Shown here in pieces: positions 11,378 to 57,735 of a DNA stretch of 64,000 bases. Source of the DNA: Octopus vulgaris. Its lineage: Eukaryota. The notes under the pieces were generated by a model that was not told where the DNA came from, did not search any database, and saw only the letters and a program-made list of their open reading frames with translations. Numbering within the stretch: position 1 is the stretch's first letter; every line of letters starts with the position of its first letter. The stretch covers positions 33,480,001 through 33,544,000 of the forward strand of contig OX597832.1 of the NCBI GenBank assembly GCA_951406725.2, read 5' to 3'. A program made the translations under genes and the position numbers.

Positions 11378-12798
11378 ATGTGAAAGTTGGATTGTGAAAG
11401 CACGTGGTTGAATATATAGAAAATAGTAAAAAGTGAAAAAACTACAGAAGGCTTGTTTTAAAAGGTTAAAAAATATATATATGAGTCAATATGTCTGAAG
11501 AATGTTATAAATTGTTTTCTTACAATGACATAGTTTAGAAGAAATGACCGGTTTCGCGTTCAGCTTTTCAAATTTCTTACATCGTTATGTTTACGTTGAG
11601 AAGAGTTATCGTTATGTTTATGTTGAGGAGAGTTCCAGATAAGGGGAGGTAATAAGTGATTTCTTCGGTGTAAGGGAGATAATCGTTTAAAATTGTTTGC
11701 ATTTCTTTTGGAGTGAATTTCTCTGTAAAATTATGTTGGAATGGTTAAGTTTGGGCTTGTATTTTTCAATGAAGAATGTTTCCTTGTTTAGTCTAATTTG
11801 TGTTGGTGTTCCGATAGCACATTGGTAAAATGGGAAGATTAAAAATTGTGGTAGTAGTTGCTTTGCGCATTTCTCAATGTGCTCACTAAAGGGTATCATT
11901 CTGTAATCTGTTGTCGATGCAGTGTGCATCTACGTCTGAGTGATAGTCCCGTGGACCCCACGTAGTTTTGGTGGCAGCCCAAGAATTTTATGACATAAAT
12001 TGTGTTTTCAGAGGCACAAGTAAAATTAGATTTGATCTTGAATTTCTGTCCCTCTTTGAAGAGGAATTCTGATCCTTCTAGCAGGTTTGGTCATGTTGCA
12101 CAGTTCGGTCTACCACATTTTTTACTTTTGCATCCGTAATTTCAGAAAACAATTTTGCCTTTGTGAGAATCTTTTTAAGTGATTTAGGTTGTTTGTAGCT
12201 TTTAATGATTTGGTGTATGTTTAGAATTTCCTTTAATTTGGGGTCCTTATGAAGTATTGGTAAATTCTGTGTGATGAAGGTGAAGGCTTCTTTGTTTCTG
12301 GGGTTGTATGTGGATATGTAAGGTAGTATTTTCGGGGAAGGTGTGTTGTTGTGTTGAACTTTTCTTAAAGTTTCTATGTTGATTTCTGTTGCACGTCTGA
12401 TCCCATCCTCTATGAGTTGAGCTGGGTAATGTCTGTCAATTAGGGTGTTTTTGAGTTCTTGCAGTCTAAAGTTCCTGGTATTTTGTTCTGACACTATTGT
12501 GCATATCCTTCTTGCAAGGTTGAAGGAGATGTTTGTTTTAGTGTGTCTTGGGTGGGATGAATTAGAAAGAAGGTATTGTTTGGCGTATGTGGCTTTGTAA
12601 AAAATGTCTGTTTCTATTTTAAGGTTAATTTTTTTAATTAGTATATCCAAGAATGGTAGCTCCTTTTGGTTGTATTCCATTGTGAACTGTATATTTGGCT
12701 TTATGCTGTTCAATAGGTTTTTAAATTTTAGGAGTTTATCTGTGTTTTCATTCCAGAGTATAAAACAATCGTCCAGGAATCGTTTCCAATTCTCTTTT
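11378..12798 (-). mobile_element. 5'-truncated Penelope-like element (Neptune-type): RT C-terminus, Cys linker, GIY-YIG endonuclease and 3' pLTR
   Basis: KENWKRFLDDCFILW (RT catalytic motif), LPFLDILI..TDIFYKAT..SSHPRHTKTNISFNLARRICTIVS, CGRPNCAT*P..FTCASENTIYVIKFLGCHQNYVGSTG..RRRCTLH..KETFFIEKYKPKLN; both ends abut (TA)n. Confidence 0.92.
11539..11578 (-). ncRNA. Minimal type I hammerhead ribozyme, U3-A8 core variant, in PLE pLTR
   Basis: Minus strand: AAGAAAU-UUGAAAA-GC ugaac GC-GAAA-CCGG-UC-AUUUCUU; 7-bp stem I, palindromic stem III, GUC cleavage triplet. Confidence 0.8.
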
Positions 12799-12827
12799 AT
12801 GTATTATACATATATAAATATATATAC

Positions 12828-13470
<643 letters not shown>

Positions 13471-13472
13471 TA

Positions 13473-13694
13473 TCAAAATGGATATGACTTACTTAATACA
13501 GATTCGATAGTCCTACCTGTATTTTCTACAACTTTGATTTTAAGACCAGTTGTGCGCAGGATTTTCTTAAATGACCTACTGAATTCGTTCCTAGGGGAAG
13601 CGTCAACAAACATTATACTGCGCAAATTTTTGTTATCATTCAAAGTAATATTTCTATTTCTTTTGCTGGTGTCCCTCTCTAACCTATCCCAGAA
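13473..13694 (-). mobile_element. Third PLE fragment (RT-EN linker, resembling Naiad/Chlamys-type)
   Basis: SIMFVDASPRNEFSRSFKKILRTTGLKIKVVENTGRTIESVLSKSYPF resembles the recalled linker motif LFVpaTP..eL....kikVVEk.G.tl...L..snPF. Confidence 0.6.
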
Positions 13695-48445: not shown

Positions 48446-50389
48446 ATCATTATTACAATTGTTACTGATTTAATTCATGCTTCACACAAATCAGGCAAGT
48501 TCAGTAAAGGCTTATGAGAACAGCTTTCCTTTCTAACGATATAAAAATTATAGACTGATACTCTAATATTTGCGAAGTAGGAGTGTAGTGGGAACTGAGG
48601 GTAACTTTGCATCTAATATTTGAATTAGGAGGACATGTTCTAAATAAGAACCAAATAAAAAATGTGTAGAAAAGCACAATAATGTGGATCCCTGCATTTG
48701 GAACATTAATCAACTTCAATAATTTAAGTGTATTAAAAGTATTATTTATGCCAAGTGGGAGTCGATTGTCAAGATAAAATAAATAACGTAATAAATATTT
48801 AAACGGTTTTAATTCATCAAATATAAAACTTAATTACTTAATACATTTCACAAAAGTTGACCCAAGTTGCCTCCATGGTGGTCTTTGGCATGTTGGTAGA
48901 GTATGGAACACTGTCTTTTGTCGTCATATTGTCTCAAATGTTCATTTAGTCTTTCTGCAATTCTCCTAGATGTCTCCCCTATGTATGTCATGTTCATGTC
49001 TTTACAAGCATCTTCTATGCAGCTTATGCTGTAAAATACATACTGTAAACTAAATCTGCATCATATCCAAGCACCCAAAAGACCCAACACTCAGACAAAT
49101 ACGGGAGTACGTCCTTATAAATGAAACCTCCCCAATACTAAATAAGAAATATAAATAGTAGATATAATACCTCCACATCCACAGTTTACACAGGTAGAGT
49201 AGAATAGTTAGCAGACTGTTATGTAGATTTATGTAGATAGATGTATATATGTGTGTGTGTGTGTATGTATGCACGTATTTTTTTATGTTAGCATATGGAT
49301 ATGAAAATAAACAGATCAACATAGAGACGGATAGGTATATAGTTTATAAGAACAGACAAGCACACGTACGCAAATGGAGACTAACACTCATGATCATATA
49401 TAGACACACTTTACTCCACTCAAGGACAAATGGAGACACGAATCCACACATATAGAGATGCACATCGATCCATACATACAAACATGGAACATAGATGCAT
49501 AACACACACACGCACACACACAGACAGACATGCACACACAAGGAAACAGAGGTGTATACATATACAAACACGCTCATACACACGCATACATACATATAAT
49601 ATACAGAAACACGGACATGCAAGCACATGAATATACAGGCTACATACATACAGATGAACACACATAAATACATTAATACACATACATACATACATACATA
49701 CACACATACATACGTACATGCATGTATGCATAGGCACACACACACTGACCCACACACATGCGCACAAACAAACAAAAGGGAACGCAGTGTAAATAACGGA
49801 CAGAATCAAGACTATTGAAAAGGTTGCATTTGTATAAGAAAAGTGAGTGCGAAAAAGAAATAAATCGAAAATCGAAATCAAGTATTTGAAATTAAATCAG
49901 GTCGATCAGGGAATACCGAAGCCAACCAAAATGCGGAATCAACAAGAATCATAGGAATGTCAGAGACGCGCAGACGCTTTGTATATTTCAAATAATTTGA
50001 GGTGAATGATAAATAATATTCTTTTGAAAATTTATCTAATTAAACGTCGGCCATTTAATCAAACATGGAACATATTAATTACAGGTGAATGCAAGATGAA
50101 AGAAAAATCTTGCAGGTGTTTTGGAATAATAGAATTAAAGAATAAATGAATCATAATGGTTAGTGTTTCGGAAGAAAAAGTTATCGATAAATTATTTATT
50201 CGCAGACACTTTACTGCAACTCGGAGAGTAATGCATTTGTCGTCAGTTAAAATAAATAGGTTTTTCTCCTTATGGGAATATTTAAACAAATCGATTTCTA
50301 TATATCCACATAATATGCAAAAACAACAACCTAAAACAAAAGTCTATTGCTGTACTCATACACGTAGTATTTAAAGCTGTGAGAGTGGT

Positions 50390-53500: not shown

Positions 53501-54092
53501 TACATAGTTACATACATACCAACACATACGCGCACACACAAGCACACATACACGTACATGCACACACGCACACACAAACAGAGAGGGAGAGAGAGAGACA
53601 AATACCTGCACGCAAGTATACACACGTACAGAACAGAGAAGATAGCTTAGATATACGAACACATGAACTCACAGAAACATATCTATGTACACGCGCACAT
53701 ACACACAGACATATTGTAGATATTAGTATATGTCTATATAAATATACAAACAAACACTATATATATAAATATACATATGTATATATGCATATATATATAT
53801 ATACATACATACACATGTACATATATATATATATATATATATATAGGGTAAGATTATTAATAATAACAATTTAACCAATTCAGTACGTTGAAAACACATT
53901 TTAGTTTAATTATACACAATATTCAATAATTATATACATAATTATAATGAGGGGTCTGCTAATTACTTCGCCACGTACTGAATTAGAAATAGACGCAACT
54001 TTCTTTTCAACTATCATAAGAACCCCAAGAAAATAACACTTTTTTTAATGTAGGCAAAAGGGAAAATGATGAAGGAAATTCGACAGCGAATA

Positions 54093-54154
54093 ATTACAGA
54101 CGCGTTTCCAACTTAAAGTAAAACATAATTACCTTTTGTTCTCATCAGTGTAAT
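54093..54154 (-). ncRNA. Type I hammerhead ribozyme, near intact
   Basis: AUUACA-CUGAUGA-gAAC aa AAGGUAA uuauguu UUACUUU aa GUUg-GAAA-CGCG-UC-UGUAAU; perfect 6-bp stem I and core; only the first stem II pair is G/G. Confidence 0.85.
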
Positions 54155-54528
54155 ATCCAAATATAAATTTGCAAGTGTTGGAATAAATATGCATGCAATC
54201 GAGCGTCGTCGCGTGACTAATATTTAACTTCACTTCCAACGTTATAGAGTCGAGCGTGATTCATATTTAAACTTTATACCCACGTATATGAAATGACTTA
54301 TCCCGCAGAAAACTGCGGTTTCGATCATGGAGTGACATATAATTTAATAATAATAATATACTGTAAGATCATTAATAATAATTATTTTACCAAGTAGTCA
54401 GTTCGTTAAAAGAACATTTTAGGAAAATTATACAAAATATTCTACAATTGGAACCCTGATAATCCGTTACTGCACTTTCTCAACATATCTATTCGTTTAG
54501 ATCACCAGTCAAGTAAATCACCATATTC

Positions 54529-54596
<68 letters not shown>

Positions 54597-54667
54597 CTGT
54601 CTAATAAAGGCCCGAAACATATGTACCGCTGAATCCTTCGCATCATGTTTTTATTTTATTTTGATCA

Positions 54668-54710
<43 letters not shown>

Positions 54711-55064
54711 AACATATATATGTACAAATATATATATATATATATATATAGTGGGTAGACCGATAGTTACAAGGATGTTTACATGAATATCAATATTATA
54801 TGCCGGCAACCGTGGAGATTGGCGACGTACCGTAAAGGGAATACAAAGGAGTGACAGAGAGAGAGAAATGAAAGAAAGGAAGAGACGTAAACAGAGACTA
54901 TGGCACTACAACCAGTCAGAAACAGTCTTCGCTACATTTGCGGTACCTGCAGAGGGAGTGTTTGTCCAGGATAGGACTACACAGCCACAGCAGGAAATGT
55001 ATCAGGACATGAAATATAAAAGCCGACTAGACTACTCATATATATGACAGAAAGGATGCCATAC

Positions 55065-55152
<88 letters not shown>

Positions 55153-55216
55153 GTATATGTATATATATAGTCTTAAACAAGAATATCATTGACAGTAGCT
55201 TCCAAGACTTGACCAG

Positions 55217-55268
55217 ATTGGTGAACGTCTGACGAAGGCTTGAGTGGCCGACATTTAGAAATCAGTCA
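55217..55268 (+). ncRNA. Degenerate hammerhead-like motif
   Basis: CTGACGA-a-GGCT tgagt GGCC-GAcA; distal gattggt/atcagtc pairing; GAAA mutated. Confidence 0.45.
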
Positions 55269-55422
55269 ATATTCCTGTTGAAGAGTAATAAATTTGCACT
55301 CTACGAAAATATAGATTAACCCATCAGATTAAAGTAAAATTGCTTTTATTATAAATAAACATAAAAGCAGGCATTAATATATATAATTGAATAAGAAGGA
55401 GTACGGTTAGACAGCTGTTTCA

Positions 55423-55527
55423 TAAACACTACACATGTTTCGATACAGCATAAATTCACATAGACAGGATTTAAATTATACAGTTTACCTGTATAACGGG
55501 ATCCAGTTGTATCTCCTCAGGTGATAT
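55423..55527 (-). ncRNA. Hammerhead ribozyme with extended stem II
   Basis: CAC-CUGAGGA-GAUACA[~60 nt incl. UUAUACAG guaaa CUGUAUAA]UGUAUC-GAAA-CAUGUG-UA-GUG; intact core, short stem I. Confidence 0.75.
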
Positions 55528-55684
55528 ACAATCGCTGTCCCCGTTAGTAAACATTTGACTTCGATGCTAGCACATCCAGCTGTTTTATTCAATTTTACTT
55601 TCACACCCGATGAATGCCTAAACCTAGACTTGAACTTACTACCAGCTATTTGGTAATTCTAACAGTGAACGAGCTCTAGTTTCA

Positions 55685-55840
55685 TTATTAACATTATTTA
55701 CATTATTTACGTTTGACGGATATTTGTCCTCATCTTGTATGTTGTTAGCACAACGTTTCGGCTGATGTACCCTCCAGCCTTCATCAGGTGTCTTGGGAAA
55801 TTTTGAACCTAGGTTCTCATTCCTAAGGTATTTTTCGATG
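55685..55840 (-). mobile_element. Inverted copy of the HHR-bearing module
   Basis: Reverse complement of 56034-56180, about 21 differences in ~147 nt by manual count. Confidence 0.9.
55747..55792 (-). ncRNA. Minimal type I hammerhead ribozyme
   Basis: GaCAC-CUGAUGA-a-GGCUG gaggguacau CAGCC-GAAA-CG-UU-GUGcU; palindromic AACGUU stem III. Confidence 0.82.
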
Positions 55841-55917
55841 CCCACGAGCATACGGCGTACTGGTTTAGAGCGCGGACTACTAACCCCAAGATTCCGACTT
55901 CGATTCCAGGCAGCGAT

Positions 55918-55975
<58 letters not shown>

Positions 55976-56205
55976 GTGATGATGATCATGATGATCATGA
56001 TCATGATCATGATACTAATAATAATAACAACAACATCGAAAAATACCTTAGGAATGAGAACCCAGGTTTGAAATTTCCCCAAGACATCTGAAAAGGGGTG
56101 GAGGATATATCAGCCGAAACGTTCTATTAAGAACAAACAAGATGAGGACAAATATCTGTCAATTCTAAATAATGTATATAATTCTTCATCTCTTAACTAT
56201 AGAAC
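55841..56205 (+). mobile_element. tRNA-headed SINE-like element: tRNA-like head, (AAT)n, HHR module
   Basis: Head 55841-55920 with A-box-like tacggcgtactgg and B-box-like gacttcgattcc; microsatellite 55921-56033; module with decayed HHR (CTGAAAA..CAGCC-GAAA-CG-TT, 56083-56128). Confidence 0.7.
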
Positions 56206-56362
56206 AAAATTCTATTTTGTACTCGACTACATTCCTAACGGAATACACCTTAAGTTATAAATATATTTACATATATAAATAATTCATTGTTAATAAATGC
56301 CAGGGCGCGTTGCGTTATATATATATATGTGTGTGTGTGTCTGTGTGTGTGTGTGTGTGTGT

Positions 56363-56397
<35 letters not shown>

Positions 56398-56473
56398 CAT
56401 ATATATATATTTATGTTTGTCCGCATGTATGTATGTAATGTATATTGCAACAGTAATTTTATATCTTGAACAT

Positions 56474-56533
56474 AGAGTTACCCAAGGTTTCGCATCCACA
56501 AAGCAAAGTCGTATGGACAGCTCTTCAGACTCT
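56474..56533 (-). ncRNA. Type I hammerhead ribozyme, fully canonical core
   Basis: AGAGU-CUGAAGA-GC u GUCCAUA cgacuuugcuu UGUGGAU GC-GAAA-CC uug GG-UA-ACUCU; all three stems pair; GUA site. Confidence 0.87.
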
Positions 56534-56910
56534 CTACATATTCTATTGGGGTTCAGCCTGTGTATTACTATGTGTTTGCCCTCTGTAATCTAAATGTCAT
56601 TAACCGGGCTTCTCTGTGTTCTGCTTGAGTATTTTGGCAGAGCATTAACGAGCCCTTCCGCTCATTGAGCTCCCGAGAGTGTACACCTGTTCGCTCCACT
56701 CTGCTGCATACCGTCTCCCACTAAACGGAGCAGGAGGATACACGCAAAGCGAAAGGATCACTGAAGGGGTGACAAATGAGTGATGAAAGATTTCCGGACA
56801 AGAACCAATATATAGTGCGTGTGTCTATTTGCCAAACTAAAAATGACCGTCCCGAAATTGAACAATATCGCTTTGAACAAACTGTTTCACATCAGGAATT
56901 CATAAATGTT

Positions 56911-56966
<56 letters not shown>

Positions 56967-57047
56967 TGTGTGTGTACGTATATATAGTTATTTTTTAAAC
57001 TCAACATTACAGGGATTGCCTGGTGTCTCAAGCTCCACACACTGAGA

Positions 57048-57086
57048 TCGCCCGATGAATGCAGTGGCGTGGAACACGAGTCATGA
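57048..57086 (+). ncRNA. Degenerate hammerhead-like motif
   Basis: tcgc-CcGATGA-ATGC agtg GCGT-GgAA-CACGAG-TC-atga; two core substitutions, geometry intact. Confidence 0.45.
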
Positions 57087-57735
57087 GGGAATATGTGAGA
57101 TCAGTTACAACAATCACCCATATAATTTACAGCCTGTATAAGTAACCCTTCTCAGAGAGAATGGAATAAAAATGAATATCACAAGAGAGAGACCATGAAG
57201 AAAGGGGAGGGGAAAATGTGATACAAGGATCTAAACAAGCAAACTTAGGAGAGAGGAAGCAATGAAGGAATATAATGTGAAGGAAAAATCAAATCAATAA
57301 TCAAAAAAGGGTAGGATGACGATAAGTACTGGAAGGAAAGAAGCATGGTTGAATGTCGTGGTACCCTTTATGAGAGAGGAAAGAAAGAGTTCAGAGAACA
57401 AGAAAGGTAAACAGATGACTAGGTACTTACCTATACATATATATATAAACACTCACACAGATAAATTTATAGATATACATAAGCGTTTATATATATATAT
57501 ACGCACATATACATATATACATATGCATAAATACATCTACACACACACAAACACACACATACCTATATAAGCGAATGTGGTTTCAACCCAATCTCTTAGT
57601 ACATGTATAGATTGCTGAAATCTTATGTCCCTTGCTCGAAGCATTTCGCTAATTCTTGTTATCTAGAAATTTCACCTTAAAAGTTTTTCTAGGACTGCAT
57701 ATGCATATATACAAAGATAGATACACTAACGTACG

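Follow-up and report, generated by a model that had tools for sequence, protein, structure and literature searches.

A 3-kb region (54093-57086) of the window, the whole 64-kb stretch of DNA analysed here, was listed in a preliminary description as carrying up to eight hammerhead ribozyme motifs, which raises the question of what these motifs belong to, how they came to lie together and whether they act. The window is part of a 72-Mb contig in a 2.8-Gb animal genome, its repeats have a cephalopod-like appearance, and microsatellites are abundant in it (117 tandem-repeat rows). Comparisons with copies elsewhere in the genome showed that the eight listed sites correspond to six insertions, with seven family-derived sites and three complete motifs. 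The six insertions represent six dispersed repeat families (A-F) within 2.5 kb that are unrelated in sequence, as had been held for most of the motifs. Families B, C, D and F are the 3' ends (pLTRs) of coding Penelope-like elements (PLEs) and family A has the organization of a non-coding tandem retrozyme; E is the only one of the six hammerhead-bearing families with neither a coding partner nor retrozyme character. The region is most probably the product of six independent insertions that piled up one after another, Penelope-type enzymes favouring TA-rich DNA. This reading builds directly on family membership, the coding partners found for B, C, D and F, the head-to-head arms, the one-sided tails, the nesting of C, the insertion ages and the association with TA tracts.

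Hammerhead motifs of the region

A type I descriptor (CUGANGA, helix II, GAAA, a short helix III, UH and helix I) gave three matches in the whole 64-kb window, all within the 3-kb region and all on the minus strand. The descriptor tolerates an unpaired base 3' of helix II, which is needed for family F, and the count in the window is three either way. The matches are the family B motif at 55424-55526, with a long helix II, a minimal motif at 55746-55793 in the inverted arm of family C, and the family D motif at 56473-56534, the best formed among the three. The cores previously read as intact at 55423, 55747 and 56474 are thus the sole strict matches in 64 kb. The type I core (CUGANGA, GAAA and NUH with helices I and II) is present at these three of the eight listed sites, as well as in A, B, C, D and F copies elsewhere. 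The G10.1-C11.1 closing pair of helix II is kept at 55424, 55746 and 56473 and lost at 54093, where the single motif of family A (54093-54154, minus strand) has C11.1 changed to G. This fourth site had also been called intact. It does belong to a hammerhead family, but the G at 11.1 breaks the helix II closing pair; each of the 23 aligned copies carries C or T at this position. Helix III is formed by six different self-complementary or near self-complementary short sequences, one per family.

Shuffles of the region (1,000 each) contained on average 0.001-0.002 strict motifs, with a maximum of 1. The descriptor scan therefore exceeds shuffled sequence, whereas the Rfam models gave no hammerhead: none of 25 matches in 54000-57200 (to E=10), neither of the two matches of further scans and none among the 150 matches listed of 395. 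The Rfam output here consists of microRNA matches driven by microsatellites and is noise. The listed site at 57052-57085 (plus strand) is a look-alike and not a hammerhead. It is single-copy, its one candidate in the genome being itself, and it has two core changes and no helix I; motifs as loose as this occur 3.8 ± 2.0 times per shuffled region compared with six observed.

Coding partners of families B, C, D and F

Members of B, C, D and F show the arrangement of EN+ PLEs, in which a co-oriented frame with RT and, C-terminally, a GIY-YIG endonuclease lies upstream of the pLTR. Pfam hits to the endonucleases were to GIY-YIG only, all under the curated cut-off, and nothing was found by Pfam on four longer PLE pieces. 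As previously stated, no coding PLE lies within the 3 kb; coding PLE fragments are present elsewhere in the window, at 12.1-13.6 kb and 48.8-49.1 kb.

Family F (54595-54670, plus strand) is a 3' tip left by 5' truncation of a young coding PLE, placed between (TA)n tracts and 100% identical to the best 40 listed of 840 candidates. Only the GAAA half of the hammerhead is present in the window. In other copies the true CUGAAGA lies ~45 nt upstream and the full motif is present, so that the site at 54601, described as a decayed motif, is instead the 3' half of a young one cut by 5' truncation, and the core read there is the interior of helix II. Three copies (L167, L168 and L169), which form head-to-head pairs, have RT, thumb, Cys-rich linker and GIY-YIG frames ~1.9 kb upstream. 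The Pfam match to GIY-YIG on this partner is weak (E=0.075) and is joined by an Atlas lead. Family D (56440-56536, minus strand; 251 candidates) is likewise the 5'-truncated 3' tip of a coding PLE, with a GIY-YIG C-terminus ~200 nt upstream in two of 24 loci (L072 and L084). The D and F endonucleases are 38% identical. Family B (581 candidates) is the 3' end of an old coding PLE, with its hammerhead arm at 55377-55582 (minus strand). A broken GIY-YIG frame lies upstream and co-oriented with B in three of 24 loci (L050, L059 and L061), within sequence common to several copies. For family C, a thumb and GIY-YIG frame ends ~30-45 nt before the head of the unit in L247 and L261, which are among 30 loci with an exact head, and in the additional locus L067. 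A free-standing SINE was therefore rejected as the nature of C, the C unit being the end of a coding element in these three loci. The young Poseidon-like family at 12 kb of the window was rejected as the partner of C, since the C tail was found in none of 30 copies.

The Cys-rich linker before the endonuclease is a Neptune trait. From their linker and endonuclease motifs, read by eye, B, D and F may be Neptune elements, and C may belong to Penelope/Poseidon on motifs read in the same way.

Families A and E

Family A occupies 53856-54449 (minus strand) with ~1.1 copies of a non-coding, tandemly repeated unit of 520-530 bp. Among its 58 candidates genome-wide, a terminal direct repeat and tandem copies were found at L038, L039 and L041, the last with two family A cores 530 nt apart. 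The unit is closed, its upstream neighbour being its own 3' end. A co-linear PLE frame of its own was found in 0 of 23 loci (counts exclude L027, which is the same place as L023), and the flank of L016 yielded no coding frame. Non-coding tandem units that each carry a type I motif, as in non-LTR retrozymes, were found in A only; B, C, D and F do not have this organization. By the layout of its sequence, family A is retrozyme-like.

Family E (451 candidates) is present as a short head-to-head insertion at 55171-55375 (plus strand). Its hammerhead at 55229-55265 is decayed, as had been recognized, with GAAA reading GACA, and both core halves are kept in only one of 14 copies. Insertions of this family are short and palindromic. 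No coding partner was found in 14 loci; the sequence upstream of E in L140 was considered as a partner and rejected as another repeat.

Nested and head-to-head insertions

The inverted tail arm of B (plus strand) is split into a first part at 55584-55682, which is interrupted by C, and a second part at 56211-56281, which continues it. The two parts are directly joined in seven other B loci (L053, L054, L056, L063, L064, L066 and L070). Family C lies between them as one head-to-head insertion (55683-56210), flanked by an 8-bp target duplication (55675-55682 and 56211-56218, 7/8 matching). C inserted into the tail of B. The C structure consists of head, (AAT)n, hammerhead and tail. A tRNA-like head (55842-55920, plus strand), with a box A and a box B read by eye and both altered here, is directly followed by the (AAT)n tract (55921-56034, plus strand) and by the sense arm (56035-56210, plus strand), which carries a one-sided tail and the hammerhead listed as decayed at 56088. 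That motif has indeed lost G8, but it is not a separate element: it is the second arm of the insertion that carries the motif at 55747, the two arms forming a 115-nt inverted repeat with 83% identity. In the hammerhead of the inverted arm, helix I is reduced to 3 pairs from 5 in most copies.

B, C and E are all head-to-head with one long tail, and the tails of E and B adjoin each other with a single short TA run between them. The combination of 5' truncation, an inverted partner arm and a one-sided tail is seen for B, C and E in the window and for A, D and F in other copies. Identities to copies are 100% for F, 93-96% for C, 82-90% for D, 82-87% for B (best 40), 70-92% for E and 71-94% for A, showing very different insertion ages across the pile. 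Two further ends belong to the same pile. One is a LINE 3' end without a hammerhead (54752-55060, plus strand; 92% to L192 and 82% to L195), which is possibly RTE-like by its motifs; an RT C-terminal frame lies upstream in L195. The other is a seventh PLE-type end (56752-56905, plus strand), absent from the preliminary list, which matches L045, L112, L119 and L122 and has a degraded hammerhead-like core at 56761; a GIY-YIG frame lies upstream in L045.

The elements point both ways: A, D and the motif arm of B are on the minus strand, and F, the LINE tip, E, the full arm of C and the 56752 end are on the plus strand. These mixed orientations were counted in favour of independent insertions. They argue against a piRNA-cluster-like trap that keeps transposon pieces in one orientation, as does the single further family match in the other 61 kb of the window; despite the high local density of transposon ends, the LINE tip included, such a trap is very unlikely. 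The long TA tracts that separate the pieces could also have led an assembly to join repeat ends wrongly at microsatellites. However, contigs from further public runs extend across the E-B junction (X17, 55170-55451, with 1 difference; X18, 55190-55452, with 2 differences), the B-C junction region and the D flank (X19, 55522-55709 and 56479-56900), although one contig-source run could be the assembled sample itself, and C has a target duplication. An artefact of this kind is extremely improbable.

Density of insertions and TA tracts

Control DNA of 1.0 Mb (100 stretches of 10 kb, 80 spread and 20 flanking the window) contained 35 strict motifs from 23 distinct insertions, compared with 0-4 in five shuffles. 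The genome thus holds ~35 strict motifs per Mb. Three distinct strict motifs in 3 kb have a Poisson chance of 5e-5, corresponding to ~50 bins per genome. The motif density of the region is thus above both shuffled and random genomic controls, in agreement with the preliminary description. Counting by homology, decayed pieces included, gave 69 family insertions in 1.0 Mb with TA repeats masked, 13 of them from the large family C (4,395 candidates). The unmasked count (95 per Mb) was discarded because family E queries carried TA repeats, and four F loci were excluded from the neighbour and TA-tract counts as partner arms of the same insertions. With a library built around the window's own families, the controls have at most two families per 3 kb (8 of 100 stretches) vs. 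six in the window, a flat genome rate predicts 0.09 six-family bins and only one of 149 loci around known elements reaches four families. The pile is a true extreme. Sixteen of the 18 strict families in the control sample were seen once, indicating that many families are missing from the library.

Insertion density rises about eightfold with TA tracts, from 0.07 per 3.3 kb where no tract is present (5 insertions over 68 segments) to 0.58 where there are nine or more (14 over 24 segments), and the correlation holds over all 300 segments (rho 0.21, p=3e-4). The window region has nine TA tracts, a number reached by 24 of the 300 control segments. Loci less than 250 nt from a TA tract make up 20/23 for A, 18/24 for B, 16/24 for D and 10/10 for F, compared with 33% of random pieces; the preference is not seen in C (2/19) or E (6/14). 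The earlier suggestion that ribozyme-bearing retroelement pieces gathered at TA tracts agrees with both the family memberships and the tract association. Since the insertion rate rises eightfold with TA density, a few such piles are expected genome-wide: the TA-rich rate, which rests on 14 events, predicts ~2 six-family piles per genome, a number that grows once families missed by the sample are included. Insertion may itself produce TA tracts, in addition to being promoted by them.

Earlier Penelope ends, local chromatin or a fragile site might also attract insertions beyond the effect of TA density, making the hotspot self-reinforcing. The six PLE-type ends in 3 kb (seven with 56752-56905), the nesting of C in B, the tail-to-tail contact of E and B and a C insertion in the frame of another PLE at L250 fit such attraction, and a review reports that PLEs often land within copies already present or beside them (PMC6765202). 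However, the 149 known elements have 40 extra families around them compared with 32 expected (p=0.09), the counts per control stretch are not overdispersed (mean 0.69, variance 0.63) and the flanking 200 kb are ordinary (6 strict motifs). Self-reinforcement is therefore unlikely here, though of all the alternatives it deserves some weight. Co-clustering of the A-F families in particular was rejected; they seldom co-occur elsewhere, with 3 A-F neighbour cases in 144 loci.

Serial, independent insertion would proceed as follows. Target-primed reverse transcription would start at the pLTR end, primed on AT-rich or TA-repeat DNA, and would stop early, so that only the hammerhead-bearing tip is laid down. 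AT-rich cleavage, priming on AT-rich DNA and an internal start of reverse transcription have been reported (Frangieh et al. 2024, PMC11167929). The insertions would accumulate separately over a long time, with the motifs as passengers that are presumably now decaying neutrally, and the pile would be the upper tail of an ordinary process with no function of its own. Counted against this explanation are the extremity of the pile, the lack of a coding partner found for A or E and the sub-threshold Pfam matches.

Prospects for ribozyme action

The motifs had been interpreted as a community of non-coding retrozymes, of which the intact minus-strand ribozymes would cut a host transcript into defined RNAs. 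All three strict motifs do lie on the minus strand, family A is non-coding and tandem, and the three-pair helix III of D might act alone. However, B, C, D and F, which make up four of the six families, are coding-PLE ends, so that most of these islands are pLTRs of autonomous elements, the very outcome that had been named as contradicting the idea, and the non-coding part of it fits only A. The reported contrast between intact minus-strand and decayed plus-strand motifs collapses when 54093, 54601 and 57052 are reclassified, and three of three on one strand is at chance level (p=0.25). Among these three, one lies in an insertion that runs both ways, as its inverted arm, and helix I has just 3 pairs in B and in the left arm of C. 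Minimum-energy folds of nine stretches were not better than shuffles (z -1.2 to +1.2), in a single-strand test that is uninformative for dimer-type motifs. Minimal motifs are reported to need dimers, lone ones being weakly active, and single minimal motifs gave no detectable cleavage (PMC4209133). Helix III differs in sequence among the three intact motifs, which would make cross-family dimers unlikely. The proposed processing of a minus-strand transcript is thus unsupported, and a retrozyme community acting in this way is quite improbable. As passengers of independent insertions, the motifs would cut poorly if transcribed, because such motifs are reported to need a partner of the same family.

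The tRNA-like head of family C

The 3' end of C is sharply set, with stop positions within ~6 nt across 47 distinct ends, none of which has a tail that continues into a frame common to the copies; no coding frame was reached from the longest C tails (6 places). Among the 30 exact-head loci, a sample biased by the search, which required an intact head, a coding frame lies directly upstream in 2 and a short spacer piece in 2. The remaining loci start at the head or at its inverted copy. This sharp start suggests, from sequence comparison, that a polymerase III-type promoter gives rise to a short RNA. In the head, box A and box B are visible by eye, and ARAGORN and Rfam made no tRNA call. C may also amplify as short copies; stand-alone non-coding direct tandem arrays of C were not found, its insertions being head-to-head. 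Contigs of a run presumed to be RNA contain family C sequence, none of it unique to this locus, and give no evidence on expression either way.

We tentatively propose, at slightly less than an even chance, that C is a coding Penelope element with a captured tRNA-derived Pol III promoter in its end repeat, whose short head-(AAT)n-hammerhead RNA would be copied tens of thousands of times by the parent enzyme. On the same tentative footing, C would be a SINE that originated within a Penelope element and depends on it for mobilisation, and its short ends and adjoining TA tracts would seed piles. If the head proved to be a working polymerase III promoter, C would show how a Penelope element can give rise directly to a SINE-like family. 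No paper was found on a tRNA-like head inside a coding Penelope pLTR, only analogues (schistosome hammerhead SINEs and TRIMp3 elements).

Relation to known systems

Dense local piles arise in this genome, in which strict hammerhead motifs extrapolate to 100,000 and Penelope-related families number well over a hundred. The pile offers a compact test bed, with six natural hammerhead families of varied age and helix design in 2.5 kb, none of them seen by Rfam, for whether lone pLTR ribozymes cut at all. A literature search on hammerhead, octopus and Penelope found no paper covering these six families, and the word ribozyme is absent from the available text of an octopus repeat annotation (PMC13282606).

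Minimal type I hammerheads are known from the pLTRs of animal EN+ PLEs, where they are massively dispersed (Cervera and de la Pena 2014, PMC4209133), and PLE insertions are known to have an inverted 5'-truncated copy, a one-sided tail and a bias to microsatellites (Craig et al. 2021, PMC8557442). The motifs of the pile resemble them in the invariant core, the short palindromic helix III and the extra base before helix II (C, E and F), in their position at the 3' end of RT/GIY-YIG elements and their mostly solitary truncated copies, and in the inverted partner arm, one-sided tail and microsatellite targets. They differ in the long helix II of A, B and F (loops of 30-60 nt) and in that the Rfam models miss all families here. 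Six families within 2.5 kb are not described in the available text of these two accounts.

Non-LTR retrozymes are tandem non-coding units (Cervera and de la Pena 2020, PMC7229834), and the axolotl has 126,247 hammerhead motifs (PMC7229834). PLE pLTRs have been argued to be the source of retrozyme units (Li, Clavereau and Pollet 2026, 10.64898/2026.07.22.740005). Family A resembles metazoan non-LTR retrozymes in its non-coding AT-rich tandem unit, its one type I motif per unit and its PLE-style inverted insertions. At 520-530 bp, its unit exceeds the 150-450 bp given in one account (PMC7229834) and falls within the 51-972 bp of the other (10.64898/2026.07.22.740005). The copy in the window, with one damaged motif, is not 'active' under the two-unit rule of the latter, whose invertebrate sample, in its available text, comprises three insects and one anthozoan and names no mollusc.

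Family C resembles Poseidon PAc of the green anole (PMC11167929) in the pLTR hammerhead, the internally set tail and the AT-rich targets, and the PAc account fits the two 3' end points of C; a tRNA-like head is not mentioned in its available text. The inferred C unit is like the schistosome SM-alpha and Sj-alpha SINEs (PMC6765202) in joining a Pol III-type promoter to a hammerhead unit, and like the TRIMp3 elements Cassandra, Helenus and Ajax (PMC10886601) in having a Pol III-type promoter inside a terminal repeat. SM-alpha is arranged in direct tandem whereas C is head-to-head and doubles as the terminal repeat of a coding PLE, and TRIMp3 elements are described as dependent on LTR retrotransposons. 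With pLTR hammerheads and non-LTR retrozymes both known, the families of the pile are likely further members of these systems rather than a new RNA system.

Family C copies as insertion targets

The (AAT)n stretch of family C, which separates the tRNA-like head from the hammerhead, is often hit by other retroelements (L003, L012, L014, L015, L018, L019 and L245). Thus, the family C copies are themselves targets. At one further locus (L243, G000 C1:183.53 Mb), a complete family C unit lies head-to-head with a coding PLE of another family that is truncated at its 5' end, and the junction of this single case is what a template switch within one insertion would give.

Penelope-like ends and coding fragments

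A seventh PLE-type end is located at 56752-56905 on the plus strand of the window, with a degraded hammerhead-like core at 56761 and a helix II. No helix I or III was found nearby in the relatives of this end (L045, L112, L119 and L122), and because of this the end may be a re-wired hammerhead. Family F, the young coding PLE represented by L167 and L168, looks recently active. It has a low-complexity 3' UTR of 1.9 kb and an A-C mismatch closing helix II, and identical family F ends are carried by many loci.

Coding PLE fragments occur at 12078-13637 and 48836-49149 of the window, including two Poseidon-like RT/thumb pieces arranged head-to-head, pieces resembling the endonuclease of L045 and a match to a hammerhead family at 13368-13427. 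A young Poseidon-like family (G000 C3:86388282 and others) has 15,743 candidates, and its open frames reach 869 codons. The five copies examined show GAAA and a palindrome at the 3' end, where the canonical CUGANGA was not found.

Two tandem retrozyme arrays were chance encounters within the random sample, one at L096 (2272-4548; seven motifs spaced by ~359 nt, with one inversion) and the other at L193 (3159-5089; four motifs spaced by ~643 nt).

Non-PLE elements

Broken frames on the minus strand at 1641-2547 of the window resemble a mariner-type transposase in their motifs; the tested piece of these frames has no match in Pfam. The plus-strand LINE 3' tip at 54752-55060, lying between TA tracts, is taken to be RTE-like, also by its motifs. 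In the L192 copy of this LINE the 5' piece is inverted, giving a head-to-head shape that is more typical of PLE insertions.
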